Shown here one piece after another: positions 33,057-52,552 of a stretch of DNA of 64,000 nucleotides. Position numbers and translations under genes: made by a program. The first letter of the stretch is position 1, and every line of letters begins with the position of its first letter. Origin of the DNA: an uncultured Clostridia bacterium (GTDB taxonomy: Bacteria > Bacillota > Clostridia > TANB77 > CAG-508); assembly GCA_948678575.1 (NCBI GenBank), contig CAPPGO010000001.1, positions 195,951 through 259,950 of the forward strand, read 5' to 3'. Under the pieces are notes generated by a model. The model searched no databases. It saw only the letters and a program-made list of their open reading frames with translations, and was not told where the DNA came from.

Positions 33057-36000
33057 CTGCCTTTCTTTTTTTCAATATTATTTGCGTGTAAGCTATAAAT
33101 ATAACTATTGATCCTAAGATTACACTTGTTATAATTACTGAGATATAAATGAATACTTCACCAGTTTTTACTGTGATAATAGCATCTGCTGATCCCATAT
33201 CATTTTCACCTTGTGCTTTATTCATTGGTGTAGAGTTTATATCTGATACACCATAAATGTTATAATCTTCTGCAATCTCTGCAATGTTGTTTACGATACC
33301 AGATGTATTTTCTTCTGTCATTTGTTTAGTTAAAACTAATTTTATTTCTCTTGTTTCACCTGGTTTTAATTCTACATCTGCTAATGCTGATGTATATAAA
33401 TTTCCATCTGTACCTGTGTACCAATCTGGATTTAATGTTGAGTTAAATGTCATTCCTGCTGGAATGTAATCAATTATTCTCTTAATATTTCCTGCGATTT
33501 CCCCAACATTTGATACTTTAATACTATATTCAATATATGTTGTTGAACTTGATAAATATTTAGCTGCGATTGGCATTTGTGCTAATGTAACATTATCAAA
33601 TTGTACACTATCTGTGCCTGCTTTATTTTGAACTGTCATTTTTGTAATAGAAGTTTCTAAACTTAAATCAAATGTATCTGCATATACAAAACCTATATCC
33701 ATGTTTGATACACTTGAATCTGCAATTGTAATTCTATCTGTAACAGCTGCATTTCTTTGTCTACCATCTTGTTCAATCTTTGTTGTAATAGCATCAGAGT
33801 TTACATTTGCTTCAACTCCTGCTTTTTGATATGTTGTAACTGTATATTTTACAGTATCATAATCAAATATTACTAAGTAGTTTCCATTTGCAACACCAGC
33901 AAAAGTATAAGCTCCTTTACTATCTGTTGTAATAGATTTTACCACTGTTCCTGTATCAGCATTTACAAGTCTTGCTGTAATTCCTGACATTTTTTGTTCG
34001 TTTTCTGCTCTCATACCATCTTTGTCTTCATCTAACCAAGCATTACCTGTAATTTTATAAGTTTTTACAATGTTTGAATTTGATGCTGAACTACTATTGC
34101 TTGTTGCTCCTGTATTTTGAACAGCTTCTTCAACTACTTGATTTGAATAGTTTGGGTCTGCTTCTATAATATGTGTTATTTCATTTGAAAGCATTGGGCT
34201 TTCCATTGTTTTTGTTTGTATGCTACCTTTATTTGTAACTGTTGCTTCGGCAGCTCCGTCAAGGTTTTTAGCTATTGCTTTAACTGTTGCTTTAAGTTCT
34301 GTATCAACTGGTATACTCACTGTAATTGTTGGTTCTGTTGAACCAGAAACTCTCTTTGTAGATTCTCTTCCATTTATTCCATATGTAATTGATTTTGCAA
34401 GTAAACCTTCTGGTACATAATCTATTAAGCTAACATCTTGTGCTTCAAAAGAACCTTCATTTTTTATTGTAAATACATATTCAATTGTTTCACCCTCAGT
34501 TACATAAGTATCTGTTGTATTTGTTGTTTGTGTAAATACTAAACTTGGTCTACCAATTCCTAAACTAATTTCATTTGATGTAACTGCATCTACACCATCA
34601 GCTTTGGCATTTGCTGTTACTGTTACAACTTTATATGTTGAACCATTATCTAGTTCTTTTGTTATTACAAATATTTGAGCTTGTGCTGTTGTTTTTGATT
34701 TTAATGTTCCTACATTTACTGTAACTGTTCTTGTACTATCATCATAATTAACTACTGCTCCATTTTTACCTGTTGTTGGTGTTGATGATGCTTCAAGTAA
34801 AAATCCTTCTTTGTATGAAACTTCATCTGGAAGTTTAAATTCTATTACAGCATTTTGTAAATCTTCATTTGAAAGATTTGTTGCTGTTATATCATATTTA
34901 ACTTCACGATTTTCAGCAATTGTTGTATTTTCTTCTGTAAAGTTATGTCCTATTTCTACTTTAAGAACTGTTTTTTCTATTGCAATATTAACTGGTTCTG
35001 AAACAACTGGCTCTTCTAAATCATCAGCTGTTGCTGTTGCTGTTATGCTAACATCTTTTTCTTCCCCTGCTCTTGCTGAAAGAACAAATCTTAATTCTTT
35101 TACTTCATCAACTCCTAGTGTAGGAATTGTGAATTCTATTATTCCATTTTCACTACTTGATGTAATTCCTTCTTCAACTGGAATATCTTCTATAACAAAT
35201 CCATTATCTACTGGAATTGTTATTTTTACATTTTGTGCAGAAGTTTTTCCTGTATTTTTTACTTCTACTTTATATGTCATTTCTTCATATTCTTTAATAG
35301 ATGTTTCTACATCAGAAGAAAGTTTGATTGAAAGTTCTGGACCTTCACCTGTACTTAAACCGATTTTATCAGCTTTACTTTCTTCATCAACTGTTGCTAC
35401 ATCTGTATGATTTTTGTAGTATGCTAAAAATGTACCATAAATACTTTCATTTAATTTCAAGTCTGCTGGAATTTTATATTCATAAGTAAATCTTAAAACT
35501 TCAGCAACTAACATTTGATAATTACTATCAGTTGGAACTATTAAATAAGATTTAATATTGTCAAAGTTTTCTACTTCTGTTGTCCAACCATTTGAACTAT
35601 CATTTAGGTCTTTTGTTGCTTCTCCGTTTTCAGAATAATAAATTGTAAAGTTTGTATTATTCTTTTCATCTGCAACTATTCTTGATACTAATGTTGTATC
35701 TATTGTTGTTCCTAAATCTTCACCTGTTTTTATATCTTTAACACCTTTAAAAGGTATTCTTCCTAATATACTTAAATCAGAAACTATATTGTTATTATTG
35801 TTCATAACTATAATTTCCATTGTTGCAACCTTTTCAACATCATTCTTGGCTATTTCAGCTTCCTTTTCACCTTGTTTAATAGATGTTAAAACTGTTCCTG
35901 CAAAATCGAAGTTGCTTGTACTATTTACTGTTACTAATCCTGTTGGTGCAGAATAGTAAATTGGTAATTGTGTTAATCCACCATCTACATAACTTGTATA

Positions 36001-38154
36001 TTCAGCGTTTGTATATTTTAATACAAATTGACTTTCAGTTGCTGGTGCATATAAGTCTACTTTTATATTAGTATTTAATACTATGTTAGTACCATTGTTA
36101 AGTACACCTGTACTTATTGAATTTTGTGTTCCATCAACTGTAACTTTAATATATTTTGCACCCTCAATATCATATACTTCAATATTAGAAATCTCTAATC
36201 CTTCACCATACATGATACTGCTATCTGTAACTTCTACATCTGTTACATAATCTGGCATTCTAATTTCAAATTCTGAATGTCCATAAACATCTGATTCATC
36301 AGTGTTGTTGTTTAATTCTAATCTTAATTCTACATCTTCATTTGGTGTAAGTGTTGATAAGTTATCTCTATCCATTACTAATGTAGCTTTTGTTGTTACA
36401 TCATTTAATATAACTTTATTTTCTGTTTCTCCAATAATTGCTAAATCATCTACATAAGTATATTTAGCTTTTCCTACTGTTTTTGAAACTAATTCTTTAA
36501 ATATTTTGTATTCTTCTTTTGAATACATACTATTTGAACTTTCTTTTATATTAGAAATGATTAAGTTTCCTTGTGCAATTGCTTTGCTTGTTTCAATTAC
36601 AACTCTTGAATTTTTTGAAATAAAATCAAATACGAAATCTCCATCATCATTTACTTCATAATTATTATCAAATTTTACTAATTCATTTCCATCTATATCT
36701 TTAATTGTAACACTTCCATCTTCTCCTAAAAGATTTATCATGTTATCTTTATTTATTTTAATTTGTTTGTAATAAACATCGTCAGCAGAAAATACATTTC
36801 CATTTTCTGATACATAATAATTTTCTAAATCTTCTACAACAATTCCTTCTACTATTTCTGAGTATGAAATATTTATTGTTGTTTTAGAATTATATTCAAC
36901 TTGATATCTATCACTTGAATTATAATTTACATAAGTATAAGCTTTGCTTACGTTTTCTGTTTCATTATTTATATTATAAGATACTATGTCACCAGTCTCT
37001 TCATTTAATTCAAAATTGAATTCTTCTTCGTTTGTTACTTTATTAATATAATCAGCATCTGATACACCACTAAATGTTGTAACTTCACTGTTTATTTTTG
37101 TATTTACATTAACTTCTTCTACTGTATCTAAATCTTCATAGGTATATGTAATTACATAAGTGTCCATTCCAGATTTTGAATAAAATCTTTCTTCTTCACT
37201 AACTTCTGCTTCACCATCTATAAGGTTATCATTTTCACCTGCATTTGAAACTTCTACTAATTCTTTTTCATTTGCTACTGAAATTGTTAACATATTTGTT
37301 TCTGCATCATATCCCCAGTTTCCAGTTCCGAACTCAACTTTCTCATCTGATTTGCCATTTGTTCCAGCAGTTGAAGTTGCTAATACTTGCATACTTGTTG
37401 CTTGAACTCCATTTATTTTTGGAGCTTCAATCTTTACAATTGAATTTCTAACTGGTAGAGAATTTCCTTCAACAGTATTATCTACATTAACAACAGTTTG
37501 AAGAATAACACCTGTTTTATCTCCATCACCGTATTTTATATATTTTGTTACTTCACTAGAAGTTTTTACTTCTCTATCATCTTTCCAAAAAACATTTATA
37601 TCAACTTCTTTTAAAAGTTCAGTTTCTTCACCTTCATCATCTACATAGATTCCTGTGAAAACAACTTGACTATCTCTATAAAGTTTTTCGTCATTTACAT
37701 ATTCCTCATTTTGATATTCAATTGGAATATTTAATACAACTTCTGAGTTATAATCAACTTGCTTTAAAGAAATAACGTCATCTTCAACATTTTGTATTGT
37801 TTCTGTTTCTTCAAACTCTCCTTTTAACTTGAAGTTTAACTTTTCGTCTTCTTCTTTTGGTTTGATAGCTATTTTTGCATCTTTCAAATATCCACTATCT
37901 TTTACATTCAAATCCAAAGTAATAGCTAATTCTTCTGCATTTACATCACTAATAACCGAATAAGATTTGTCTTCTTCGGTTCCAAAATAAGCATCAAATT
38001 CAACTTGTTTATGGCCTGTTGATGATTCTTCACCAAACCATGTTTCAAATATTGATGTTGCTAATGCCTCAGTAGTGAAAGCAAAATTAGCAAAAGTCAA
38101 TGTGAATACAAGAATTCCTGCTAAAACTTTTTGTGACATTTTGTTTTTTAGCAT
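33049..38154 (-). CDS. Giant cell-surface protein, A-type (1701 aa): signal peptide, DUF11 (conserved repeat domain) repeats, SdrD-B-like domain, C-terminal ITVKTG motif plus TM and KKRKAGV tail
   Basis: DUF11-like repeats include YKVEVKNTGKTSAQNVKITIPVDNGF, KYDITATNLSNEDLQNAVIEFKLPDEV and IEYVFTIKNEGSFEAQDVSLIDYVPEGL. The SdrD-B-like region is GNAWLDEDKDGMRAENE...TDSKGAYTFAGVANGNYLVIFDYD. Its stop overlaps the B2 start, which implies translational coupling. Confidence 0.7.
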   Translation of the reverse strand: MLKNKMSQKVLAGILVFTLTFANFAFTTEALATSIFETWFGEESSTGHKQVEFDAYFGTEEDKSYSVISDVNAEELAITLDLNVKDSGYLKDAKIAIKPKEEDEKLNFKLKGEFEETETIQNVEDDVISLKQVDYNSEVVLNIPIEYQNEEYVNDEKLYRDSQVVFTGIYVDDEGEETELLKEVDINVFWKDDREVKTSSEVTKYIKYGDGDKTGVILQTVVNVDNTVEGNSLPVRNSIVKIEAPKINGVQATSMQVLATSTAGTNGKSDEKVEFGTGNWGYDAETNMLTISVANEKELVEVSNAGENDNLIDGEAEVSEEERFYSKSGMDTYVITYTYEDLDTVEEVNVNTKINSEVTTFSGVSDADYINKVTNEEEFNFELNEETGDIVSYNINNETENVSKAYTYVNYNSSDRYQVEYNSKTTINISYSEIVEGIVVEDLENYYVSENGNVFSADDVYYKQIKINKDNMINLLGEDGSVTIKDIDGNELVKFDNNYEVNDDGDFVFDFISKNSRVVIETSKAIAQGNLIISNIKESSNSMYSKEEYKIFKELVSKTVGKAKYTYVDDLAIIGETENKVILNDVTTKATLVMDRDNLSTLTPNEDVELRLELNNNTDESDVYGHSEFEIRMPDYVTDVEVTDSSIMYGEGLEISNIEVYDIEGAKYIKVTVDGTQNSISTGVLNNGTNIVLNTNIKVDLYAPATESQFVLKYTNAEYTSYVDGGLTQLPIYYSAPTGLVTVNSTSNFDFAGTVLTSIKQGEKEAEIAKNDVEKVATMEIIVMNNNNNIVSDLSILGRIPFKGVKDIKTGEDLGTTIDTTLVSRIVADEKNNTNFTIYYSENGEATKDLNDSSNGWTTEVENFDNIKSYLIVPTDSNYQMLVAEVLRFTYEYKIPADLKLNESIYGTFLAYYKNHTDVATVDEESKADKIGLSTGEGPELSIKLSSDVETSIKEYEEMTYKVEVKNTGKTSAQNVKITIPVDNGFVIEDIPVEEGITSSSENGIIEFTIPTLGVDEVKELRFVLSARAGEEKDVSITATATADDLEEPVVSEPVNIAIEKTVLKVEIGHNFTEENTTIAENREVKYDITATNLSNEDLQNAVIEFKLPDEVSYKEGFLLEASSTPTTGKNGAVVNYDDSTRTVTVNVGTLKSKTTAQAQIFVITKELDNGSTYKVVTVTANAKADGVDAVTSNEISLGIGRPSLVFTQTTNTTDTYVTEGETIEYVFTIKNEGSFEAQDVSLIDYVPEGLLAKSITYGINGRESTKRVSGSTEPTITVSIPVDTELKATVKAIAKNLDGAAEATVTNKGSIQTKTMESPMLSNEITHIIEADPNYSNQVVEEAVQNTGATSNSSSASNSNIVKTYKITGNAWLDEDKDGMRAENEQKMSGITARLVNADTGTVVKSITTDSKGAYTFAGVANGNYLVIFDYDTVKYTVTTYQKAGVEANVNSDAITTKIEQDGRQRNAAVTDRITIADSSVSNMDIGFVYADTFDLSLETSITKMTVQNKAGTDSVQFDNVTLAQMPIAAKYLSSSTTYIEYSIKVSNVGEIAGNIKRIIDYIPAGMTFNSTLNPDWYTGTDGNLYTSALADVELKPGETREIKLVLTKQMTEENTSGIVNNIAEIAEDYNIYGVSDINSTPMNKAQGENDMGSADAIITVKTGEVFIYISVIITSVILGSIVIFIAYTQIILKKRKAGV

Positions 38155-38577: not shown

Positions 38578-41500
38578 TTATTTAATTCTTCTCTTATGAT
38601 AAAGTGTTATTCCGACTGTAACTGCTACGCATGCAAGCGCTACAACAATTATTACAACTACTGTATAACTTGCTCCCTTAACTACATCTCTTACTACTCT
38701 ATTAATTCTGTTTAAACCTGTTGGTGGAGTTAATGTTACTTTTTCAACGGAAGCCGTATCACTTTCTGTTCTACCTTCGTGGAATTCTGGACTTTCATTT
38801 GATATTTCTTCTATTTTTGCATTACCTATTGTTGTTGCTAAGTTTGTAACCCTACCAGTTACTGATGAGTATTGTATAATTTCAGCTATGTTTTCATAAG
38901 TCATATCATCTGTCTTATCTTCTGGTGAAAGTACTTTTGATGTTGCTAATGATATAATACCTATACTTTCATTACTGTCTGCATATCTTGGGAATAAGAA
39001 TCTACTAAATTTCTTATTAACTGTTGTGTCTTGATCTGCTGGTAAGTCATCTCTTACCCTATCATCTAATGACAATGCCAAGTTGCTTCTTTCTGCTGTA
39101 TCATATGCTCTTCCATCTGCATCTACTAATTTATAATCTTCTGTTGTTGTATTATCTGTTACTGGTTTTCCATTTGAATCATAATATGTATATGTAAATT
39201 TATTAAGCATATTTGCATCATATAATTCTTTTGTTGTTGTTGTCTTCCATAAGTTGTTTTCGCCTCTATTTTCATCATTGTTAAATACTAAATCATTATC
39301 TACATAATCTAATATTTTATCTATTTTTAATTCTGCAATTACTTCCATAGCATCATTTATTTTACCTGTATAATATGTTGATCCTAAATATCTTCCATAG
39401 TATCCCGTTGTACCACTATGTGGATTTCCTGCATTTGGTGCCTTTTGAATGTCTGCTATTTCAACTACTTTATCATTATTAGCTAATAAGTCTTTAACTT
39501 TAACTCTGTAAAGTATATCTTTATTAGTTAAATCTTTCTTAATATTGCCACCTTCTAATTCATAACGATAATATTCACTAAACATTGCATTTCTTGCTGT
39601 TAAAGCTGGTGAATAATTATGATTTATGAATGTTGGTTTATTATTAATATCGCTTACTTGGTAAGTAACTTCATCATATACTTGATTTTGTGTTCCGCCA
39701 AGTTTTGCATATTTTTCAGTTTCTGTATTTTCTTTAAATCTTAAATCTGAAAGATTTGAAGAAACCCTATCAACTTCACTTATGTTTGTTCCAGTGAATA
39801 GATATTTAACTTTAATTGTTGCACCTTGCAATATATTGTCATCAAGAACAATATATGCAAAACCTTGTGTAGCTTTTACTAAATATTTTCCACTACCTCT
39901 TGGATATTCTTCTAATGCTTGCATTCCATTGCTATCTTTTTCATATTCATTTGGTAAGTATTGAACATTTTGTAATCCTACTGATTTATTTACATTTAAT
40001 TCTGTTCCTGCAACAGCTATTACATAAGTTCCATCATTATTCTTTTGTGCTTCTCCTATATTTCCTCCGCCAGTTGCTACTGCATTTTCAATATCACTAT
40101 TGCTTCCATTAGGATCTACTTTTATAGTATTTCCCTCAGCATCAGTTATGAATGTTGTTGCACCTGTTACAAAATCTGTATTTCTTACTACACCATAGTA
40201 TTCATCAAAAATTGCGTCTACTAATGGTTCAGAAGAATTTGCATTATTTGTATCAGAAGTTAATATAGTAATATTTGAAATATATTTATTCAATGCCAAT
40301 TGTTGTTCTGGTCTATATTGTAAACCAAAATCTATATTAGCAATATTGAATCTTGCTTCTGTAATTGTTTCAGTAACTTTCTTATTATATTCTTTATATG
40401 TTAATATTGTTACTTTTCTTATTTCTTTTTCAGTTCTTACTAAGAAGTCAGTAGTTTCAGAATTCATATATGTTTGTCCTAATAATGCTATTTTATCTGA
40501 TGAATATTTACCTTTTAGTATTTCATTCTTTTGGTTTGTTACTGTCTCTGAGTATCCAATTACTTCAAGTCTTCTAATTTCATCATCTTTTGCATCTGAT
40601 TGTCCTGCTTTTTCAAGAATTTCTAATTTAACATCTCCTGGTGTCTTATCTCCATTTGCTTGTGCATTTTCTGCATAAACACTTTCGTTTGGTTGATATG
40701 TTGTAGATTTATAATCTTGACCATTAAATATGAATCTTTCTTCTGATAAAGCATTAATATCTTCATCAGCTTCTTTATCTCCATAAGTAAATCTTACTAT
40801 ATATTCACCTGGAATATATCCATTAAACATATATGTACCATCTGCTGCTGTTCTTGTCTTCATTACAGAAGCATCTTCACCAGTTTCACCGTTTACATAG
40901 ATTGTATCTTCGTAAACTCTTTCTACTCCTGCGTTTTCTGGATCTGGCATTTTAATAACTTCTATTAATTGTGCTTTTACATCTTTTGCTGAGAAGTCAT
41001 TTTCCTCTTTGTTACTTCCATCTGATTGTTCAAACGCTTTATTCTTTCTAGCATCTTCTAATGCTGATACTCCATCACCATATTTACCATTACCAATATA
41101 TTGTGTACCATCTTCATCTGTTGCTGTTTCACTTCTTGCATCATCCCATACATAACCTTTTAATGTTCTTTGAACATTATATTTGTATTTGTATTCTGGA
41201 TCCTCACCTTGTGGTGGTGGTGTGTCTGGTGGTGGTGGTGAAGGAACTTTTAATAAAATTCCTGTTTTAAATGTATCATCTTCAAAGAATTTTAAATACT
41301 CTGAACTATCAACATTTGATACTGATTCATAAGTTTCTCCAAAGTTATTTGGATTAGAATCTTTATCTATTAAACTTGCTGATTTATAATTTTCTCCATC
41401 TTTATAGTATGTAGAATAACTACTAATTTCAGCAACATTTTCCTTTATACCTAAGATTGTTTCAATTTCTTTAATGTCAGGATTTTCAAGCTCTTTTTCA

Positions 41501-44500
41501 ACAACAAATGTTATTAAAATATCCATGCTTTCGCCTTCTGCTAACATAAATTCACTAGCTTTAATTCCTTGACCTGTAAGAACATTAGTACTTGTATTTT
41601 CTACTGCTGGTCTTATGTATAAAGTATCATACAATTTCATCCCACCATCTTGTAATGTTCTTTCAGCATTATATGCTGATTCTTTTGTTAATGTAACTGG
41701 TTTTTCTTGACCATTACCCATTACAGCTTTTGCAGATAACACTTTAATTTCTTTATTTACTAAATAATCATGTGCATCTTTTTCTTTAACATTAAATCCT
41801 CTGATGCTTCCATCATTGTTAAATGTTAAATCTACAAAGTCTGTGTCATAATATTCAACGATTTCATTAATGCCTGTATAAACTTTTATGTCTTTTCCTT
41901 CTGATTTATGTGGTTCGTCATCTGTAATACTGTTATTTGTAACTTTAATTCTGAAAGTTATTTCAGTATTAAGTTCACTTTCTCTACCAACAGAGTTATC
42001 TAACAATATACTTGCTCCACCATCTACTGCATTAGCATTAAAGTCTCTATCTGGTGATCCTTTATATGCTCTTACAGTGTCTATATGGTATTGAGAAATT
42101 CTATAATTATAATCTTCTAAATAATATTCAAAAGAATATAATTTTCTGTTGCTTTCAATTCCAGATGTATCATCTTTGTAGCCTGTCATATAGAATTCAC
42201 TATTATACTCATCTGTTGAATGTTCCTTATCAATTGCTTTTGCTGCATTTCTGCTTTCATCAGCAAATACTTCACCTACTTTTGATGTAAATTTATTTTG
42301 GTTATATTCATAAGTCATTTCTTCACCGTTTATTGTTGTTTTCAACTCATAAACGTCTTGTGTAATGTCTAAATCTACATCTTCTCTTTCCTCTAAACCT
42401 AAGTTAATGTATTTTAAGTATTCTGTTTCTGGTTTATAATCAGAGCTTGTTTGTTTTAATAACCATAATAATTTTGTATTTGCAATACTTGAATTTGAAG
42501 GTACATTTATAAAGCTTCGTGCTGTAATTTTTCTATCTTTGTTTACTCTAATGTATGATTCATGATTTGATTTTTCATATTCTAATGCATTTTCCTCTGT
42601 TAAATCACCATTATACGCTTTATTAAATGCTACAATTTCATAATGTTTGTTGAATTCTTCTCTTACGTCTGTAAATTCGTAAGCATTTGAATCACGTTTA
42701 TATTTGTCATCAATTTCACCTTCAACACCTATGTTTTTATTATCTGAATAGATTTCAGTAGATTTATATACTAATCCATCATATTCATATTCAACATAGT
42801 AATTGATTAATTCACTTAATTCTGTATAATTTTTATTTGGATCTTTATTTGTTGCCTTATCAACTCTTTGTTCACTTTCTGTTACTCCGCTTCCATCAGC
42901 TTTGTATGCTCCTGCATAATATGTAGAGCCATCTTCTAATCTACTGAATGTAAATAATCCATTGCCATCTGTTTTTGTTGTTCTTACTAGTGTGCCATCA
43001 TCTTTGTATAATTTTACAACTATACCTTTCATAGCAAATTCTTTACCTGTTGTATCGTCTATATGTGTACTTGGATTTGTTTCAACATCGATAGCATTTC
43101 CATTAACTTCAAGATTTCCGTTTCCGTTTTGTCCCATATATCCGTCTTTATCTCTATCTAGCCATACTTTACCAGCAATTACTAAATCTTTAAGTTTTAC
43201 ATATTCTTTTGATACTTGTTGATCTGCTATATTTTCGTTATATTCATCATTTTTAACTTCTCTTGTAAATTCATCATGGTTAATATCAGTTAAAGTTCTT
43301 ATTGTTCCTGTATTTTCTAAGCTATATAAGTACATATTTGTTTTTGTAACTTTTACTGTTATTTCATAAATGATGTAATCTGTTGGGTCTAATATTAAGC
43401 ATTCGCTTCCATATTTATTACCCATTTCAAATGTATGTGTATTATTTCCAATGTCCTCATGTGTTACAGGTACATTTGCAAATTTAACACTACCATCTGC
43501 TTTATATACATTAACTGCAACGCCTTGATATTCTAATCCTGCGTCCATAGCATCTTGTATTTTTGTAGGTCTTACCTGTGTTGCTCTCTTAATAGCTGAT
43601 GTCATTGAACCACCAACTGTTTTTGCATCATTTGTTAATCTTATAGAATAGATTATTGTCTCATTTTTCTCTGCTTGTAATGGTGCATTTTTCTTTTGTT
43701 CTTCTGTCATTTCATATCTGTCTGAAAGTGTATTTGTTTCATTTGTAAAGTCATTACTGTTATTGAAGTCTGTCATTTCGTGTTTATAATCACTAATGTA
43801 TTTATCAAGTGTTAATTCATAATCATTGATTATATAGAAATCGCTTGTTATTAAATTATCACCTGGTGCATTATTTTTAATTACACAATACTTGTCATTT
43901 ACATTACTTGATTTTCCTGGACCTCTATTTATGTTTTTAATCTTTTTATCAAGTTTTGCATTGTTTTCTTCTATTACACCTTTTTGATGTTCTTCAACAA
44001 CTAATGTTATTGTTATTGTTCTTGTGCCTCCTGCTGGAATCATTAAATTATCTATTTTAATTTTTCCACCACTCATACTTGCCTCGGGAGCACTAATAGT
44101 ATGAGAATCATTACCAGTTATACCAGTATTTTCTACTTCTATTTTCAATCTTGAAAATTTATTTGGTAATTTATCTTCTATATTTACATAAACTTTATCT
44201 GGTTCCCAATATGGTTTTCCATCTCTTGTTGAACCTTGAATATCGAATCTACTTCCCGTAGAATCCATTGTATTATATGCAATAATCTTGTACGTAACTA
44301 CATCTCCATATTCTGCATAAACTGGATTTGCTTTTTTCTGAGCTTCTGTTGTTCCATTTTTTGCAGATCTTTCATCTGATGCTGGCATTGTTGTGTCTAA
44401 ACTTGTTGGAACAATATGTTCTTTATCATGCTCAACATCATAAATGTATTTTTCAAAACCTACATTAAATTCTTTTATTTCATAAGTGTCTGAATCCCAA

Positions 44501-46746
44501 TCTCTCAATTCTTTTGGATTAGTTGAATCATTTTTATCGCCTCTTACATTTACCATATTACCCATTGAATGAGCTCCATGTGTAGCTTCATGATCCCAAA
44601 CACTATATTTCATATGTTCTGTTGTATCATTTCTAGTTAAAAATGCAATTATATTTGTATATATACCTTGATCTTTAACTGGTCTTACTTTGATTTCATA
44701 TTTTATCTCACTATGTGCATTTACTGTTATAGCTGAGCTATTTCTTATAGATGCATCAATTTGAGTAACTGTACAAGTATTTTTATCTATTACAGTTCTA
44801 GTAACTTGTGTTATTCCAGCACCTATGTCTCCTGGTAACACGTCTCCAACTTTTACAACTGTTGGAAATCTAGAATCATTTTTCAATTCTATTGTAAAAG
44901 TAACTTCGTCTCCTCTTTCAACTTTAACTGAATTGTTATATTTATCTCGCATTGCATCTTCACGCAATTTATCGCCTTCCATATCACGTCTTTCAGTTCC
45001 ACCATTATATAAGTTTATTGCTTCTCCTACATGGTCTACATTTGAAATATACTTATAAATTGACATTTGTGTTTTCATTGGTACTGAAACTCTAATTTTA
45101 TAAGTTCTAAGTTCGTTACTTAATATACCTCCACCAGCGAAACCATCTTGTGCAGCATCTGCACCACTTGTTGGATTTTCCCAAGTGAATTTCCAACAAT
45201 CTTTATGTCCATGTCTACATAGATAATCAACAGTATGTGTAGTACTATGAAATGTACCATGATGGTGTACAGTATATGTATATGTGTATGTACTTCCATC
45301 TGCATTAGTTCCTGTTCCTGTTTCTGTTGTATCCCAACATCCAGAATACCAAGTATGTGTACAAGTTCCATGATATGGTGCACTTGTAGTACCTGGTGAT
45401 GTATTTGCTGAACATCCTGATGCTGGACTTGGACAAGAATAAGATGTACATCCTCTTTGATTACTTTTTTCTTTCCAACTTAATCTATATTGATATCCTC
45501 TATATACAGTACCATTAGCTGATACGTGAATTCTTTGATATGTAAATATAATATCTAATAATTCATCATAACCTTTTACTTCACCTTCACTAAATTGAAT
45601 GTTAAAGTTCAAGTCTGGTTCTATATCTTTTTGTCCTCCACCATTTGCACCAACAAGTTTTTTTGTAATATCAATTGTTTTTTCTGCACCAGATTCATTT
45701 GTAAGTACAGCTTCTACTTTGATAATATCTCCTTTTAAATCATCTGCTGTTCCAAATATATCTTGTAAAGTTGCAGTATCATAAGATGCTGATGAACCAT
45801 CATCTCCTGCGACCTCATGATCATCATCTCCACCTGGTTCTCCAATTGATGAACCATCTACATTAACTCTTGGACAATCATAATCTTTTGCTCTAACATA
45901 ATGACTCATTTGAAATGGTCCTACAATTAAATTACCTCCTGATAATGTTGTACCAACATTATCAGCTGGAATAACGTCTATTTTTGGATCTTCTGATTCT
46001 TGGTGATATTTATAATATTGCTCACCTTGATATTTTAATTTATTAGTTGCTGAACCTCCTAAGTTAATCCAACTATCCCATACTGCTGATTGTAAAGGAT
46101 CTGATGAATAAGAACCTCTTGTATATAAGTTATTTGGTCCACCTGATTTATAGCATGCAAGCAAAAATGCAAGTGATGCCCTTTCTTCTCCTTCTTCACA
46201 ATTAAATGCAATATCTTGTGATGTATAATACCAGTTTGTATATACTGTATCTGTTGGATTCTCCGTTTTTTCTCTATGACCTTGATAAACTTTTGATGAA
46301 GTTTTTAAAGCTGGATTTGCATAATAGTCTGCACTTGTATCTAAATCTGCTGTCATACTTGTTGCATAAGTACTTAAATTTCCTTTTGAGTAATTCCATT
46401 TATTTTTAGTAACTGTATATGTACCAGGATCATGATATCCATTACCTAATACATTATTCTTTTTTCCACCATATTCTACACCATGTTGCGCACAGAAATA
46501 ATCTTTATTAGAATTAAATACATATTTATCAATAGGAAATCTTCCTATTCTTGTATATGGTGCTGTCTGTGGTGTAAATGCCTTTTTAACTTGCATTTCA
46601 ATTGATTTTCCACCTACTAATGTAGTTTCTGGTTCTTGTTTTTTATCAAAAAGGGCATATGATTCATTAGATAATAATATAATTCCATATAAGGAAGTAG
46701 AAATTATGATACTAGCTAACAAAATACTTATTATAAATTTTTTCAT
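38578..46746 (-). CDS. Giant cell-surface adhesin, B-type (2722 aa), paralog of 26187..33056: putative thioester-like N-terminal domain, large Cys/His-rich insert, Cna-B-like and SdrD-B-like domains, TPPTGLN motif plus TM and KRRIK tail
   Basis: It has a signal peptide and the conserved YFCAQHGVEYGG...DPLQSAVWDSW motifs. The Cys/His-rich block is RGCTSYSCPSPASGCS...HGTCTHTWYSGCW...VHHHGTFHSTTHTVDYLCRHGHKDCW. SdrD-B-like domains are present (GKVWLDRDKDGYMGQNGNG..., GYVWDDARSETATDEDG...GEYIVRFTYGD). The C-terminus is LTPPTGLNRINR...VVVIIVVALACVAVTVGITLY + HKRRIK. A strong RBS AAGGAGGAG precedes the ATG. Confidence 0.7.
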   Translation of the reverse strand: MKKFIISILLASIIISTSLYGIILLSNESYALFDKKQEPETTLVGGKSIEMQVKKAFTPQTAPYTRIGRFPIDKYVFNSNKDYFCAQHGVEYGGKKNNVLGNGYHDPGTYTVTKNKWNYSKGNLSTYATSMTADLDTSADYYANPALKTSSKVYQGHREKTENPTDTVYTNWYYTSQDIAFNCEEGEERASLAFLLACYKSGGPNNLYTRGSYSSDPLQSAVWDSWINLGGSATNKLKYQGEQYYKYHQESEDPKIDVIPADNVGTTLSGGNLIVGPFQMSHYVRAKDYDCPRVNVDGSSIGEPGGDDDHEVAGDDGSSASYDTATLQDIFGTADDLKGDIIKVEAVLTNESGAEKTIDITKKLVGANGGGQKDIEPDLNFNIQFSEGEVKGYDELLDIIFTYQRIHVSANGTVYRGYQYRLSWKEKSNQRGCTSYSCPSPASGCSANTSPGTTSAPYHGTCTHTWYSGCWDTTETGTGTNADGSTYTYTYTVHHHGTFHSTTHTVDYLCRHGHKDCWKFTWENPTSGADAAQDGFAGGGILSNELRTYKIRVSVPMKTQMSIYKYISNVDHVGEAINLYNGGTERRDMEGDKLREDAMRDKYNNSVKVERGDEVTFTIELKNDSRFPTVVKVGDVLPGDIGAGITQVTRTVIDKNTCTVTQIDASIRNSSAITVNAHSEIKYEIKVRPVKDQGIYTNIIAFLTRNDTTEHMKYSVWDHEATHGAHSMGNMVNVRGDKNDSTNPKELRDWDSDTYEIKEFNVGFEKYIYDVEHDKEHIVPTSLDTTMPASDERSAKNGTTEAQKKANPVYAEYGDVVTYKIIAYNTMDSTGSRFDIQGSTRDGKPYWEPDKVYVNIEDKLPNKFSRLKIEVENTGITGNDSHTISAPEASMSGGKIKIDNLMIPAGGTRTITITLVVEEHQKGVIEENNAKLDKKIKNINRGPGKSSNVNDKYCVIKNNAPGDNLITSDFYIINDYELTLDKYISDYKHEMTDFNNSNDFTNETNTLSDRYEMTEEQKKNAPLQAEKNETIIYSIRLTNDAKTVGGSMTSAIKRATQVRPTKIQDAMDAGLEYQGVAVNVYKADGSVKFANVPVTHEDIGNNTHTFEMGNKYGSECLILDPTDYIIYEITVKVTKTNMYLYSLENTGTIRTLTDINHDEFTREVKNDEYNENIADQQVSKEYVKLKDLVIAGKVWLDRDKDGYMGQNGNGNLEVNGNAIDVETNPSTHIDDTTGKEFAMKGIVVKLYKDDGTLVRTTKTDGNGLFTFSRLEDGSTYYAGAYKADGSGVTESEQRVDKATNKDPNKNYTELSELINYYVEYEYDGLVYKSTEIYSDNKNIGVEGEIDDKYKRDSNAYEFTDVREEFNKHYEIVAFNKAYNGDLTEENALEYEKSNHESYIRVNKDRKITARSFINVPSNSSIANTKLLWLLKQTSSDYKPETEYLKYINLGLEEREDVDLDITQDVYELKTTINGEEMTYEYNQNKFTSKVGEVFADESRNAAKAIDKEHSTDEYNSEFYMTGYKDDTSGIESNRKLYSFEYYLEDYNYRISQYHIDTVRAYKGSPDRDFNANAVDGGASILLDNSVGRESELNTEITFRIKVTNNSITDDEPHKSEGKDIKVYTGINEIVEYYDTDFVDLTFNNDGSIRGFNVKEKDAHDYLVNKEIKVLSAKAVMGNGQEKPVTLTKESAYNAERTLQDGGMKLYDTLYIRPAVENTSTNVLTGQGIKASEFMLAEGESMDILITFVVEKELENPDIKEIETILGIKENVAEISSYSTYYKDGENYKSASLIDKDSNPNNFGETYESVSNVDSSEYLKFFEDDTFKTGILLKVPSPPPPDTPPPQGEDPEYKYKYNVQRTLKGYVWDDARSETATDEDGTQYIGNGKYGDGVSALEDARKNKAFEQSDGSNKEENDFSAKDVKAQLIEVIKMPDPENAGVERVYEDTIYVNGETGEDASVMKTRTAADGTYMFNGYIPGEYIVRFTYGDKEADEDINALSEERFIFNGQDYKSTTYQPNESVYAENAQANGDKTPGDVKLEILEKAGQSDAKDDEIRRLEVIGYSETVTNQKNEILKGKYSSDKIALLGQTYMNSETTDFLVRTEKEIRKVTILTYKEYNKKVTETITEARFNIANIDFGLQYRPEQQLALNKYISNITILTSDTNNANSSEPLVDAIFDEYYGVVRNTDFVTGATTFITDAEGNTIKVDPNGSNSDIENAVATGGGNIGEAQKNNDGTYVIAVAGTELNVNKSVGLQNVQYLPNEYEKDSNGMQALEEYPRGSGKYLVKATQGFAYIVLDDNILQGATIKVKYLFTGTNISEVDRVSSNLSDLRFKENTETEKYAKLGGTQNQVYDEVTYQVSDINNKPTFINHNYSPALTARNAMFSEYYRYELEGGNIKKDLTNKDILYRVKVKDLLANNDKVVEIADIQKAPNAGNPHSGTTGYYGRYLGSTYYTGKINDAMEVIAELKIDKILDYVDNDLVFNNDENRGENNLWKTTTTKELYDANMLNKFTYTYYDSNGKPVTDNTTTEDYKLVDADGRAYDTAERSNLALSLDDRVRDDLPADQDTTVNKKFSRFLFPRYADSNESIGIISLATSKVLSPEDKTDDMTYENIAEIIQYSSVTGRVTNLATTIGNAKIEEISNESPEFHEGRTESDTASVEKVTLTPPTGLNRINRVVRDVVKGASYTVVVIIVVALACVAVTVGITLYHKRRIK

Positions 46747-46759
46747 AAACTTCTCCTCC

Positions 46760-49700
46760 TTACTTATAGAATTTTTTTAAACTAATTTTTTTATTTTTTG
46801 CTTTATACACTTTATCAAAATGTATATCTATTGGTAATTTTTGATTATATCCAAGTCCTGCAAGAACTCCTATTATGAATATAATAATTATTACATTTCT
46901 TAATGTTCTACCTGTTGACACTGTGATGATTGTATTTTGAACACTAATATTATTATCTGCTTTTTCTGATTCCGCTGAATTAGATAAAGCTTTTAGTATT
47001 TCTACTTTATTAGAAATTGTACCCGTATTTTCATTTGTCATTGTCTTTGTTAAGTTTATCTTGTACTCTTTCTTTTGTCCTGGATTTAAAGTTGTTTGAT
47101 TTATATTTTTCATATAAATATATCCATCATTTCCTTTATACCAGTCTTTATTTTGATTTTCATCAAATTCGATATCTGTACCAATGTAATCCACTACTTG
47201 CTCAGCATATCCTTCTAAACTACCTTTATTTTCTAATGTAATTGTATATTCTAATTCTACCTTAGCACCTTTTAATTGCTTTGAATGAATGTCTATTTTT
47301 GCTAAATCTACATTATTGTAATTATATTCTTTTGTACCTTTTTTAGTTGTTACTTTTGCTTTACTTAAATATTTAGTAATTTGTAAATCAAAAGTATCTC
47401 TACTTTGTAAACCAATATCAATATTTTCAATATTAGCATTTTCTACTGTTATTGTATTTGAAATTGCATTCATATCATCTGCATTACTTTCAATAACATC
47501 AGAATTTCTATCTTCTCCAACATCTGCTTTCTTATAAATTGTAGTTGTGTATAATTTATTATCATAAACAAATGCTACAATGTATTTTCCATTTTCTACA
47601 TCGTTAAAAATATATCCACCATTGCTATCTGTTGTTGTAGATTTAAGCATAGAGTGTCCAACCGTTAATAAATATACTTTTATTGAAGCTAAAGCTTTTT
47701 CATCATCTTCTCTTGCTCCATTCTTATTTGTATCTAACCATGCTCTACCTTTTATACTATATTTTTGAACTTCTACTGGCTCACTTGGATTATTATTTTC
47801 TTCTGGTTGTGTAGGCGTATTTGGTTCATTTGGTGTTAAATTGTTATTATTATTGCTATTATTGTTATTATTGTTACTATTATCTGGGTTTTGATTTACA
47901 TTGTCATTATCATTATTTGTATTATTATCATTATTGGCATTATCTTCTTGCTCTTGTCGTTTTTGTTCTTCTTCATATTCTTTATTTAAGTTATCAATTC
48001 TATCTTGCTCTTTTTCTTCTTCTGTTTTCTCTGTATTCAATACTGTAAATTCAAAAGGATCTATATTTATATCTTCTTGATTATCTGCTGTTATTTTTCT
48101 GTTTAATATAACTTTAATAGTATCGATTCCAGACATGTTTTTAGCTTTTAATGTCATATCAACAGTCATGCTTTCATTTGCTTTTATAATTGGTAACTTG
48201 GCATCTATTTTTCCTGTTCCATCTCCTGTTGATAAAGTACTTCCATTAGAACATTTTATTTCTCTAACATCCATGTTATTTGGAACATCACATTGGAATT
48301 TACCACTAGTTACATTAGTTAATCCCATATTTGTTATTGTTGTTGAAATAACAATAGTTTCATTTTCTTTAATTTGTGACAATTTATTTACTGTGCTGTC
48401 TTTTGCATCAATCATTCCTCTAATTACACTTTGATTTACAGGTGTACTATACTCATAATTTGCCATATCCTCTGATTTTATTTGGAATTGACAATTATAT
48501 TCTTCTTTTGATTTACTAATTTTTTTTGCAATTACTTCTGTTGTTATAACAGTTGTTTCACCCTTTTTCATTTCTGGTATTTTAAAATATATTTTTCCAT
48601 CATTTGGACTAAATGTAATATCTCCATCTGCTCCATTAATTTTTCCTGATGAAAATTCATAAACTTTTCCTACATTGAAAATTGCTTCAACATTTTTTAA
48701 ATCTCTATTAGAAATATTTTGTACATTTAATGTAAAGTTTGTTGGTGTACCTGGTTCTAAAACTCTATCATAATCCAAAGTTATATTTGTATCAAAATTT
48801 GCATATTGCAACTTATTTTTTATTTCATTTGTTTCTATACTATTTGCTAACGTATCACTAGTAACAGTTGCTTTATTTGTTATGTATATATCAGGAACTT
48901 CTGTTATATATTTTTTCTCAAATATTGGTTCTTGAATTATTACTTTTTCTTCGTTTTCATATTTTGTATTCTCATCACCAGATTGTGGTGGTACTTCTAC
49001 ATCTTTATATCCAACAACTTCTTCTATATAATATCCATTTTCGTCTTTTCCTGTTGCATAAGATTCAAGAGTAGGTTTTCTATTTGTTCTTACATAATAA
49101 TCAAATGTTTTTGTTTCTCCTGCTTTTAATACAGGAATATTAAATTCCATTTCTTTTTTAGTAGAATCCAATACAAAACTATAATCACCAACATAACATC
49201 TACCATCTTTTACTGTATATGTTGTGTATTCTGGAATTGGTGCTTTTACATTAATATTTTGTATATCAATACTTCCACTATTTACAACTGTTACTGTATA
49301 TTTCATTCTTTTTTCAGATAAAATATCAGCTCCATCTCCAATGTCTACACTTAGATTTGCTTCGATTTTTGGTCCAGCTTCTGTTACTAAACCTACTAAA
49401 TCTGCTTTTGTACTTTCATATACAACTGCTAAATCTGTATGATTATTATAATATGCTCCAAATGAACCATACATTTCTACTTCATAAGGTAAGTTAGCTG
49501 GTATTTGGAAATTATAACTAAACTTAAATAATGTTCCAGCTTTAACTGTACTAGTTGGTACAATTAAATAAGATTTTACTTGACTCATATCTTCTGGTGT
49601 TTTTGTCCAACCATTTGCGCCATTACTTAAAGATATATCAGCTTTTGGATTATATGAATAATATATATCGCATCCAATTGGATTAATATCTGATTGAAGA

Positions 49701-52552
49701 ATTCCACTAACCATAAATGTATTTCTATTAGTTCCAATTGTTTTACCTGTTATAACATCTGTTGCTTCTGTATTTGGTACTCTACCTAACATTGCAACAT
49801 CTGTACAATCATTTCCTGTATTATTTAATGCTGCAAGTGTCATTGTAACATCTCTTGTAAGTGTTCCCATTTCAGCTTTGGCTGTTACTTCACCTTGTTT
49901 TATTGTTTCAATTGTACTTCCCATTCCATCATAATTTTCAATACCATTTGCTGTAATAAAACCTGATGGTGCTTGGAATGAAAATACTTCAATATCAAAA
50001 CCATTTGTTGTTTTAATTATTCCATCTGGAATACCACTTGAAATTTTCCAATCTGTTTGTGATTGATAATTTGTTACACCTTGATTGAAATAATACATTT
50101 TTAATTGATCATCTTTCTTTGGTGTATAATCATCAACTACTATTTTTGTATTTACTATAATATTTGTACCATTTGTAATTTCACTTGTACTAAATTCTCT
50201 TTGAACACCCTCTAATTGAATTTTCATTCTTTGAACGTTATTTGCATCTTTGAAAAGTGAAATGTTTTTAACTGTTAATCCTTCTTCATATAAAAGATTT
50301 ACTGATTTTACTTCAACATCTCTTATATAAGATGGAAATACAATTTCGAATTCTGGATTTATATATAAATCACTTTTATCAGTATTATTATTAAGTTCAA
50401 TTTTTAATTCAACATTTTCGTTATCTGCTATTGTAGATAATTGTGTTGTATTCATTGAAATTTCAGCTTTTGTATAGCTTTTTTCAAAATATTTTTCTGC
50501 TTTTAATGGTGTAAGTTCAATAACTTCATCAGAAGTTCCATATTTTACTTGTGCTTTTACTCTACTTTCTATTTTTTCAAAATTATTAAATGTAGCTTTT
50601 TCATAAGCACATTTTCCAATTGATTTAACAAAATCAACTGTTATTGTTCCATTAACTTTAATATCTTTTACAGATATTTCTACACCATGTATATCTCCAT
50701 TTAGTACTAATTCACAATCTTCTTGTGAACTAACTATGCTAGCATTTAATGTATGTAAAACTTCTCCTGTACTTGATTTAATTTCTATTGTTCCGCCTTG
50801 ATTTAATATTTCTGCTATCTCAGCATATTTGAATTTTACTTCTTTATATAATACATCTTGCGCTTCAAATTCTAAGTTTGTCTTATCTATATAATATTCT
50901 TTTGTATCTTTTAATGTAAATTCTTTTAAAATATCATTTGTAAGAATATTTATACTAACTGTTGAAGTAAATTCTGTATCATATACAGCTTCAACTGAAT
51001 TATAGTTAGCATTAATTTTTCCTTTGCTTATTAAATCTTCTGTTGTTCCTATTGAATATGTAATAAGTTCTCCAATATTTACAATTGTTTTCTTTTCTCC
51101 TGAGAAATCTTTTGTTATTATATTATTTTCTTTTCCGCTAAATTCTTCAACTGTTACTTTTCCTTTTAAGTCAACTGAAATTTCTTGACTTTCTACATAT
51201 TCATCGTATCTATATACAATTACATATATATCTTCGCCACTTGTTAAAACAGCATTATTGTTTTCAACTTTTATAGTTATGGTATTTTTATCTGCATTAT
51301 ATTCCCAATTATCACTAGAAAAAGTAATTTCATTAATTTCTTCACCTGATGTTGCTTTTAATTTTGTTGCGCGCACATCTAAAGTTATAGGTGATTTTCC
51401 ATTAATTAATGGAGCTTCAAACTCTATAACTGTTTCTTTTAATGGTAAATAATTTTCCTCTGTACAATCTCTATTTACAACTATTTTGCTTTCAACCAAA
51501 GTTCCTTTTGTTCCTTCAACTTCAAAAGGTGAAACTTTTGTAATTTCAGTTGAAACATTTATGTCTTTTGAATAAGTCCATTCAGTTGTTATTTTATCTG
51601 TACTAGAAACTTCTACTTCTTCTAGATCTTCATTTATATAAGTACCAAACAAGTCCAAATTTGTTTGTTTATATAAGTCTGATACATTTAATGTTTCACC
51701 AGCTTTATAAGCTAATTTAACATAAATCTTTGTATTTTCTGCTACATTTTCTACCAATATTTCATTATCACTATTAATCTTTGCACTTATTGCTGAAACG
51801 GGTATAACGTCATTATTTTCTTTTTGTTTAGCTTCGTCTTCATATACTTTATCTTCATCAACTAATACATCTTCTTGTTCTTGATTATCCACTGTTTTTC
51901 CGTCAGTTGGAATAATGTTTTCAGCCGCTTGTCCGTCGGCAGGTTCCATATCTTGAACATTTGTATTATCTGATGTTACAGTATTAGCATTATCAACAAC
52001 TGCTGTATTTTCTTCATTTTCTACTACATTATTTGTAACGTCATTTGCTATTTCATTTGCAATAGTGTTTTCTGATGATGTTGTATTTTCATTTGTTGGT
52101 AAAGTCAATTCTACTTCTGGTAAATCAGCATTTACAACTTGTCCTGTTTGCAAAAGAGTTTCTTCAAGTTGAACAGCTTGTTCTAATGTATCCTCCTTCT
52201 TTTCGTTATTTGATGATAAATTCAAAATTTCTTCGAATTTAAAATTGGGCTCTCCTTCATCAGTAACAGCTTTTATTGTTCCAGTTTTCAAATAACCAAT
52301 TTCTTTTGGTTCTAACTCTAAAATCAATGTCATTTTGCCATTAACATCTGCTTGCATTTCATTTTTTTCTTTTCCATTTTCATCTAAGAAATAAGCCTTG
52401 TATGAAAGATTATTCTTACCAAAAAGTGAAAAACCAAAAAGCGATATGCCATCACTTGTTGCCAATGCTTGCAAAGTTAAACCACAATTTGAAAATGTGA
52501 TAACAAATACTATTGCCATTACTAAGATTTTCCTAAGTACTTTGTTTTCCAT
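46760..52552 (-). CDS. Giant cell-surface protein, A-type (1930 aa), paralog of 33049..38154: DUF11-like repeats, Asn/Asp-rich low-complexity tracts, SdrD-B-like domain, ITVSTG motif plus TM and long basic tail
   Basis: It shares blocks with A2 (ELNNNTD.SD.Y...EFEI..P.Y..DVEV, NGTNI..NT.I.VD.Y.P, KSYLIVPT). The SdrD-B-like region is GRAWLDTNKNGAREDDE...TDSNGGYIFNDVENGKYIVAFVYD. The C-terminus is ITVSTGRTLRNVIIIIFIIGVLAGLGY plus a KKISLKKFYK-type basic tail. Confidence 0.7.
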   Translation of the reverse strand: MENKVLRKILVMAIVFVITFSNCGLTLQALATSDGISLFGFSLFGKNNLSYKAYFLDENGKEKNEMQADVNGKMTLILELEPKEIGYLKTGTIKAVTDEGEPNFKFEEILNLSSNNEKKEDTLEQAVQLEETLLQTGQVVNADLPEVELTLPTNENTTSSENTIANEIANDVTNNVVENEENTAVVDNANTVTSDNTNVQDMEPADGQAAENIIPTDGKTVDNQEQEDVLVDEDKVYEDEAKQKENNDVIPVSAISAKINSDNEILVENVAENTKIYVKLAYKAGETLNVSDLYKQTNLDLFGTYINEDLEEVEVSSTDKITTEWTYSKDINVSTEITKVSPFEVEGTKGTLVESKIVVNRDCTEENYLPLKETVIEFEAPLINGKSPITLDVRATKLKATSGEEINEITFSSDNWEYNADKNTITIKVENNNAVLTSGEDIYVIVYRYDEYVESQEISVDLKGKVTVEEFSGKENNIITKDFSGEKKTIVNIGELITYSIGTTEDLISKGKINANYNSVEAVYDTEFTSTVSINILTNDILKEFTLKDTKEYYIDKTNLEFEAQDVLYKEVKFKYAEIAEILNQGGTIEIKSSTGEVLHTLNASIVSSQEDCELVLNGDIHGVEISVKDIKVNGTITVDFVKSIGKCAYEKATFNNFEKIESRVKAQVKYGTSDEVIELTPLKAEKYFEKSYTKAEISMNTTQLSTIADNENVELKIELNNNTDKSDLYINPEFEIVFPSYIRDVEVKSVNLLYEEGLTVKNISLFKDANNVQRMKIQLEGVQREFSTSEITNGTNIIVNTKIVVDDYTPKKDDQLKMYYFNQGVTNYQSQTDWKISSGIPDGIIKTTNGFDIEVFSFQAPSGFITANGIENYDGMGSTIETIKQGEVTAKAEMGTLTRDVTMTLAALNNTGNDCTDVAMLGRVPNTEATDVITGKTIGTNRNTFMVSGILQSDINPIGCDIYYSYNPKADISLSNGANGWTKTPEDMSQVKSYLIVPTSTVKAGTLFKFSYNFQIPANLPYEVEMYGSFGAYYNNHTDLAVVYESTKADLVGLVTEAGPKIEANLSVDIGDGADILSEKRMKYTVTVVNSGSIDIQNINVKAPIPEYTTYTVKDGRCYVGDYSFVLDSTKKEMEFNIPVLKAGETKTFDYYVRTNRKPTLESYATGKDENGYYIEEVVGYKDVEVPPQSGDENTKYENEEKVIIQEPIFEKKYITEVPDIYITNKATVTSDTLANSIETNEIKNKLQYANFDTNITLDYDRVLEPGTPTNFTLNVQNISNRDLKNVEAIFNVGKVYEFSSGKINGADGDITFSPNDGKIYFKIPEMKKGETTVITTEVIAKKISKSKEEYNCQFQIKSEDMANYEYSTPVNQSVIRGMIDAKDSTVNKLSQIKENETIVISTTITNMGLTNVTSGKFQCDVPNNMDVREIKCSNGSTLSTGDGTGKIDAKLPIIKANESMTVDMTLKAKNMSGIDTIKVILNRKITADNQEDINIDPFEFTVLNTEKTEEEKEQDRIDNLNKEYEEEQKRQEQEDNANNDNNTNNDNDNVNQNPDNSNNNNNNSNNNNNLTPNEPNTPTQPEENNNPSEPVEVQKYSIKGRAWLDTNKNGAREDDEKALASIKVYLLTVGHSMLKSTTTDSNGGYIFNDVENGKYIVAFVYDNKLYTTTIYKKADVGEDRNSDVIESNADDMNAISNTITVENANIENIDIGLQSRDTFDLQITKYLSKAKVTTKKGTKEYNYNNVDLAKIDIHSKQLKGAKVELEYTITLENKGSLEGYAEQVVDYIGTDIEFDENQNKDWYKGNDGYIYMKNINQTTLNPGQKKEYKINLTKTMTNENTGTISNKVEILKALSNSAESEKADNNISVQNTIITVSTGRTLRNVIIIIFIIGVLAGLGYNQKLPIDIHFDKVYKAKNKKISLKKFYK

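Follow-up and report, generated by a model that had tools for sequence, protein, structure and literature searches.

Conserved Cys and Gln-Trp motifs in the heads of two giant adhesins from an uncultured Clostridia bacterium, and their possible relation to thioester domains

Thioester domains (TEDs) covalently bond Gram-positive bacteria to host or partner surfaces, and they are used as protein-engineering “superglues.” Here we consider whether such chemistry might reside in two giant surface proteins, B1 and B2, encoded in a 64,000-nucleotide stretch of DNA (hereafter the window) from an uncultured Clostridia bacterium (GenBank assembly GCA_948678575.1, contig CAPPGO010000001.1, positions 195,951 to 259,950). 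The B1 open reading frame (ORF; 38578-46746, minus strand, as are all genes and gene features of the window given below with coordinates) encodes 2722 amino acids comprising a signal peptide, a head of about 530 amino acids, a long immunoglobulin (Ig)-like stalk, and a TPPTG sorting-type signal. Its paralog B2 (26187-33056; 2289 amino acids) has the same architecture. We tentatively propose, with somewhat less than even confidence, that the shared head is a new, enlarged TED variant, invisible to current sequence models, with a putative thioester.

Three sequence motifs have been described for TEDs by Walden et al. 2015 (PMC4450167) and Miller et al. 2018 (PMC6194298). The thioester Cys lies within a [YFL]C-hydrophobic-hydrophilic motif on strand C. 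A second motif, TQxx(hydrophobic)W (formerly TQxA(I/V)W), is located on the central helix alpha2, where its Gln and Trp side chains hydrogen bond to the backbone of the Cys and are not required for the bond to form. The bonding Gln is carried by a C-terminal strand, in a motif (hydrophobic-Q-hydrophilic-hydrophobic-hydrophobic) that is weak, and reported Cys-Gln pairs include C138-Q267 in CpTIE, C94-Q247 in PnTIE, C88-Q292 in EfmTIE86, and C296-Q467 in SaTIE (PMC4450167, PMC6194298). Along the chain, the motifs follow the order C-T-Q (PMC4450167). In class II TEDs, the Gln is supplied by an extended beta-hairpin that loops back into the Cys lobe from beyond an inserted sandwich (PMC6194298). 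An earlier note on this DNA had taken a Cys followed about 140 residues later by the TQxA(I/V)W Gln as the thioester signature. This statement merges two separate motifs, because the Gln on the helix is not the residue that forms the bond (PMC4450167, PMC6194298).

The two motifs that the note had pointed to are present in both heads, at coordinates within a few bases of those it gave. The Cys in a C-x-x-HG context corresponds to Cys85 of B1 (NKDYFCAQHG; codon 46492-46494) and to Cys75 of B2 (DILCCYHG; codon 32832-32834). The Q-x-A-x-W motif is found as Gln219-Trp223 in B1 (DPLQSAVW; 46078-46092, with the Gln219 codon at 46090-46092) and as Gln189-Trp193 in B2 (TIQYAWW; 32478-32492, with the Gln189 codon at 32490-32492). 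The spacing between Cys and Gln is 134 amino acids in B1, within the range of 120 to 140 residues given before, and 114 in B2, which falls slightly short of it. The Q.A.W pattern occurs exactly once in each B protein and is absent from A1 and A2, the products of the two giant ORFs that neighbor the B genes.

Wherever the region is present in the family alignments, Cys85, Gln219, and Trp223 are invariant among B1 relatives, except that one homologue (P0020) lacks Gln219. The B2 family invariably keeps Cys75, Gln189, Ala191, Trp192, and Trp193 at these motifs; of the “CC” pair only Cys75 is retained, and Cys76 is variable. When 24 heads are merged into one alignment (mean column identity 22%), just four columns are invariant, namely those of the Cys, the Gln, the Trp at the fourth position after the Gln, and a single Tyr. 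For a secreted protein of a Gram-positive bacterium, a Cys that is invariant and unpaired suggests a chemical rather than a structural role.

The head domains extend over 45022-46605 in B1 (residues 48-575, predicted by AlphaFold2 to fold as one unit) and over 31539-32903 in B2 (residues 52-506). Profile comparison with hhalign establishes that the two are homologous (probability 95%, E 2.8e-8, 291 columns), with the Cys and the Q/W motifs both in register, and a comparison restricted to the core likewise aligned Gln219/Trp223 with Gln189/Trp193. When 1.84 billion representatives were searched exhaustively with HMMER, 24 relatives of the B1 head emerged, at identities of up to 53%; for the B2 head, a word-indexed search gave eight relatives. 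The word-indexed search returned no match for the B1 head and only three proteins, all already known, for the merged profile. Such negatives are unreliable for this low-complexity and fast-evolving family, as the exhaustive search found relatives that the word-indexed search had missed. No match to the B1 head was seen among plasmids by tblastn, and a scan of a genome collection with a single protein as query yielded no relative.

When B1 residues 48-296 were modeled with AlphaFold2, the predicted local distance difference test score (pLDDT) was 45.8; three helices and a hairpin were seen, and the Cys-bearing N-terminal half was unmodeled. Prediction of residues 48-575 with the B2 family added to the alignment gave a pLDDT of 81.8 and a predicted template modeling score (pTM) of 0.75, a gain that is not attributable to the longer construct alone because the B2 sequences were added at the same time. 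In this model, a strand at residues 49-55 precedes the strand that carries Cys85 (residues 83-87, model residues 36-40, pLDDT about 90), which is followed by a long and less confident loop. Three strands at residues 155-182 lead into a three-helix bundle (residues 187-198, 217-224, and 238-250; model residues 140-151, 170-177, and 191-203), the second helix of which bears Gln219 and Trp223. A hairpin with an invariant GPF-x-M motif (residues 258-280) comes next, followed by an acidic disordered loop, a short helix containing Gln328, a beta-sandwich (residues 341-431), and Cys/His-rich beta-ribbons (residues 445-507). Finally, a long hairpin (residues 517-530 and 534-556, model residues 470-483 and 487-509; pLDDT up to 96) has Gln533 at its tip and leads into the stalk. 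The order of elements, with the Cys strand followed by three helices that carry the Q/W motif on helix 2 and then by beta structure, is the C-T-Q order of TEDs.

The Cys/His-rich region is an insert within the head (45187-45450, residues 433-520 in B1, with conserved H464, C470, C510, H512, and C517; 31647-31727, residues 444-470 in B2). It probably binds metal, which would be unusual for a Gram-positive extracellular domain. Its length is hugely variable among homologues, some of which have long arrays of C-x-x-C and H-T-H repeats. A separate segment of the B2 head, NEDANQDGTVEKD (residues 262-274; window 32235-32273), is kept in the B2 family and gives a weak match to dockerin-type Ca2+ loops among PDB sequences (E 0.24-1.1).

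Among described systems, the heads most closely resemble the class II TEDs of TIE proteins, which include BaTIE of Bacillus anthracis (6FWV), EfmTIE86 of Enterococcus faecium (6FWY), SaTIE of Staphylococcus aureus, and the TIE protein of pLS20 (Pfam PF08341/PF20610). A class II TED is the top structural neighbor of the head, although the structural similarity is weak. Both are N-terminal heads on secreted fibers that bear sortase signals; both place the Cys of a [YF]C-x-x motif on a strand and have a three-helix bundle with Q...W on helix 2; and in both an Ig-like sandwich is inserted before a terminal beta-hairpin that bears a conserved Gln. In contrast, no sequence-profile similarity between them is detectable, and the B1 head, at about 530 amino acids, is roughly double the size of a class II TED (about 260-280). 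The Cys strand is separated from helix 1 by about 100 residues rather than about 30, the Cys/His-rich ribbon module is an addition, and the putative thioester would span about 415-450 residues compared with 171-204 in class II TEDs.

Class I TEDs, such as those of Cpa, SfbI, and FbaB from Streptococcus pyogenes, CpTIE from Clostridium perfringens (5A0G), and PnTIE from Streptococcus pneumoniae, share the logic of three motifs (C, TQxA(I/V)W, and Q), and LQSAVW of B1 is an almost literal version of TQxA(I/V)W. Their bonding Gln is located on the hairpin that immediately follows helix 3, whereas the corresponding hairpin of the B families (GPF-x-M/I) has no conserved Gln. MSCRAMMs of the SdrD/Cna type and fibrillar adhesins with DUF11/CnaB repeats resemble the B proteins in stalk domains (SdrD_B, and also DUF11 when the A partners are included), in surface anchoring, and in their giant size. 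However, these adhesins bind noncovalently through A-domains of the DLL or collagen-hug type and do not have a head with an invariant unpaired Cys.

The local sequences around both motifs conform to the TED descriptions given above. For the Cys motif, YFCAQ in B1 and ILCCY in B2 present an invariant Cys on a predicted strand, and the motif (Y/F)FC(A/I)QH fits [YFL]C-hydrophobic-hydrophilic. Thioester-domain proteins annotated in RefSeq on Bacillus plasmids carry AFCFQH, AFCLQH, or AFCVDH at this site, a near-match to YFCAQH of B1. For the second motif, LQSAVW and IQYAWW correspond to TQxx(hydrophobic)W on the central helix, with Thr replaced by Leu, Ile, or Val in the family. From this correspondence, Gln219 and Gln189, which the earlier note had regarded as bond partners, are probably the Gln residues of the helper motif rather than those that would form a bond.

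If so, the bonding residue would have to be sought elsewhere. Our preferred candidate is Gln533 of B1 (AAQDGF; 45148-45150), which would represent the TED “Q” motif. It is present in 13 of 15 B1-family sequences, the exceptions being one truncated sequence in which it is missing and P0020, in which it is replaced by Ala. Its counterpart Gln490 of B2 (TAQMLG; 31587-31589) is a Gln in all five B2-family sequences that reach the region. The site forms the tip of the terminal hairpin, and the strand that runs out to the stalk follows it immediately; this position matches that of the bonding Gln in class II TEDs (PMC6194298). P0020, the only homologue that lacks Gln219, has lost Gln533 as well and retains Gln328 and Gln404. 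Because of the class II-like hairpin position and this joint loss, the most likely candidate for a bonding pair is Cys85-Gln533 in B1 and Cys75-Gln490 in B2. An alternative candidate, Gln328 (TLQDIF; 45763-45765), is found in all 15 B1-family sequences, and the equivalent position in the B2 family is a Gln only in B2 and in its closest relative, which is 84% identical.

Several results weigh against placing the heads among TEDs. The earlier note had looked to a profile search to settle their membership; no match to Pfam TED (PF08341), TED_2 (PF20610), or NCBIfam TQXA was returned for B1, B2, 16 heads of the B1 family, or the 24 merged heads, even at E values of up to 10. Searches of PDB sequences with the B heads, by phmmer and with profiles, retrieved no TED and nothing else of relevance. 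Comparison of the B1 and B2 profiles by hhalign with a class II TED profile, built from an eight-sequence alignment of pLS20-like plasmid TEDs, gave probabilities below 1.5%; the sole mini-alignment paired fC-QH with fCid of the TEDs over five columns and is not significant. In addition, the strand that is topologically equivalent to the beta-Q strand of class I TEDs (GPF-x-M) has a Gln, Gln278, in B1 alone. The joint loss of Gln219 and Gln533 is a single observation from a sequence that is possibly truncated, and the spacing of 448 residues between Cys85 and Gln533 is unprecedented, as known TEDs span 129-204.

The class II TED of pLS20 (L002:6477-8780), which is experimentally supported (PMC8092201), served as a positive control and matched TED_2 at 5e-7 and TED at 3.5e-5. 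This genuine TED itself matches no PDB TED by phmmer, and therefore TEDs appear to be highly divergent. No new TED class came to light in a search of the literature.

Other explanations for the two motifs must be weighed against an enlarged TED. It might be argued that both arose by chance in coding sequence that is AT-rich and of low complexity, and that they carry no meaning, given that C..HG and Q.A.W are short and that BLASTP sees no similarity between the B1 and B2 heads. The conservation data already refute this idea, which we regard as extremely improbable: about 30 homologues drawn from different metagenomes all keep these residues, and profile comparison shows the two heads to be homologous. 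The invariance of Cys, Gln, and Trp in the 24-head alignment at such low overall identity, together with that homology (E 2.8e-8), bears out the argument of the earlier note that conservation in two diverged paralogs is not accidental. A second possibility is that the thioester joins exactly the residues the note had named, Cys85-Gln219 in B1 and Cys75-Gln189 in B2. Only at this position do all 24 sequences have a Gln without exception, full conservation across both families is seen for no other Gln, and the equivalent helix Gln of solved TEDs touches the Cys backbone and is hence nearby. Yet Gln219 is helical in both AlphaFold2 runs and equivalent to a Gln that does not bond, every TED that has been solved or mapped by mass spectrometry bonds through a beta-strand Gln close to the C-terminus of the domain, and the bond still forms when the Gln of the TQxx(hydrophobic)W helix is mutated. 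We consider this pairing improbable, and regardless of whether the head is a TED, the pairing of the Cys with the Q-x-A-x-W Gln is unfit for annotation as written.

More weight must be given to the possibility that the head serves for adhesion or ligand binding and contains no thioester, whether it has no relation to TEDs or descends from one in degenerate form. In this case, the Cys would be a free thiol that serves as a catalytic nucleophile, as a metal or redox site, or in a disulfide with another protein, for instance an A protein, and the Q/W helix would be purely structural. Every sequence-model test for TED membership was negative, the structural resemblance is weak, and the strand matching the class I beta-Q has no conserved Gln. 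The head also includes features that are foreign to known TEDs, namely the Cys/His-rich, probably metal-binding insert and the dockerin-like Ca2+ loop of B2. However, the heads have no invariant His or Asp for a catalytic dyad or triad, and even the His of C-x-x-H (His88) is replaced in several members; a Cys enzyme of the papain or transglutaminase type, such as a Cys protease, is unlikely for this reason. The lobe likewise has no second invariant Cys, which makes a disulfide role unlikely, and a c-type heme site can be rejected because the motif is C-x-x-H rather than CxxCH. In the absence of a thioester, the trio of C, Q-x-x-x-W, and a distal Q would have acquired its TED order and its fitting secondary-structure context by coincidence. 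We judge a head without a thioester to be possible, though on the doubtful side. The earlier proposal of a TED at the N-terminus of both B proteins thus stands in part, in that the shared head, the placement of its Cys and Q/W motifs, and its top structural neighbor agree with it, but no profile match was obtained and the bonding Gln had probably been misassigned.

If the enlarged TED reading is correct, the first approximately 530 (B1) or 460 (B2) residues of the mature protein would form one head domain at the tip of a sortase-anchored fiber. Cys85 or Cys75, presented on its beta-strand, would be the reactive residue, and Gln219/Trp223 or Gln189/Trp193 on the central helix would cradle it without serving as its bond partner. 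The bonding Gln would come from further downstream, most likely as Gln533 or Gln490 in the turn of the last long beta-hairpin. This hairpin would fold back onto the Cys lobe past the inserted beta-sandwich and the Cys/His-rich module, resembling the slipknot of class II TEDs with a much larger insert. The buried Cys-Gln thioester might then react with a nucleophile on the target surface, typically a Lys amine, to fix the bacterium covalently. We speculate further that B1, B2, and about 30 metagenomic relatives constitute a third structural class of TEDs, unseen by Pfam and NCBIfam, that keeps the Cys lobe and the TQxxW helix and receives its Gln through a hairpin about 415-450 residues downstream, past a beta-sandwich and metal-binding ribbons, so that adhesion is possibly coupled to metal or redox state. 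We regard this more specific proposal as rather unlikely.

Either outcome would be of interest. A working TED would extend this chemistry to giant adhesins of uncultured gut Clostridia that are now annotated as hypothetical, would mean that present sequence models overlook an entire branch of the family, and would show that insertions much larger than those known so far, a Cys/His-rich module among them, can be accommodated in the TED core. Otherwise, the invariant unpaired Cys and the Q/W helix mark an unknown reactive head domain that is worth biochemical study.

The remaining parts of the B proteins are consistent with surface display. Both begin with a hydrophobic N-terminus, in keeping with a signal peptide, and have a C-terminal TPPTG motif, a variant of LPXTG, followed by a transmembrane segment and a basic tail (38716-38730 with a KRR tail in B1; 26298-26312 with a KK tail in B2), and (T/S)PPTG is kept in 10 of 11 full-length homologues. 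No sortase gene was identified among the window ORFs scanned. The B1 and B2 stalks and C-termini are similar by BLASTP. The B1 stalk matches SdrD_B (E 4.9e-9) and, weakly, SpaA, and includes SdrD_B/CnaB-type domains. In B2, four CnaB-like modules of about 100 amino acids follow the head directly; a K...E...N pattern is discernible in them by eye, and there is a weak match to DUF5979 (E 0.005). A regular-expression search for the ester-bond motif HxDxxDxxQ found none. Taken together, the signal peptide, sorting-type terminus, SdrD_B/CnaB-type matches, and K...E...N modules suggest a TIE-like setting. Thus, the TIE-type architecture proposed earlier holds with respect to secretion, the sortase-type signal, and the long Ig-like stalk, but not for ester-bonded repeats of the HxDxxDxxQ type.

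The window is chromosomal DNA of low GC content (about 28%) from a spore-forming Firmicute, with rpoB, spoIIE, mreBCD, a penicillin-binding protein (PBP) gene, and minC present. The nearest relatives of its RpoB are metagenome-assembled genomes of uncultured gut Clostridia, at only 75-76% identity. Four giant ORFs stand in tandem, in the order A1 (46760-52552; 1930 amino acids), B1, A2 (33049-38154; 1701 amino acids), and B2, where A1 and A2 form a paralogous pair as do B1 and B2. Each A gene is located directly upstream of a B gene, and A2 and B2 overlap by 8 bp. This arrangement suggests that A and B are components of coexpressed two-component fibers. The A proteins carry DUF11 and SdrD_B domains and end in TVSTG or TVKTG, unlike the TPPTG of the B proteins, followed by a transmembrane segment and a basic tail; A2 has no cysteines at all.

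Related metagenomic contigs (L090:5033-19142 and L091, from Logan SRR10090109 and SRR10090030) have the gene order mreC, PBP, minC, an A-like gene (1654 amino acids), and a B-like gene. Because this order recurs there, the A-B pair is a conserved locus of the lineage. In this related organism, a stop codon and a change of frame divide the B gene into a 546-amino-acid head ORF and a 2493-amino-acid stalk ORF that ends in SPPTG and a transmembrane segment. Since the split is identical in both samples, the gene may be a pseudogene, may undergo programmed frameshifting, or may encode a genuine two-part adhesin.

Two other genes in the window deserve mention. A ComM/YifB-like gene of the Mg-chelatase family (9658-11271) is broken by an in-frame TAA at 10531-10533, such that its ChlI/Lon_C half and its Mg_chelatase half form two abutting ORFs, and it represents either a pseudogene or a sequencing error. 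In addition, a protein of 1404 amino acids (15162-19376) combines leucine-rich repeats with a C-terminal type I dockerin, which hints at cellulosome-like or cohesin-dockerin surface display in this organism.

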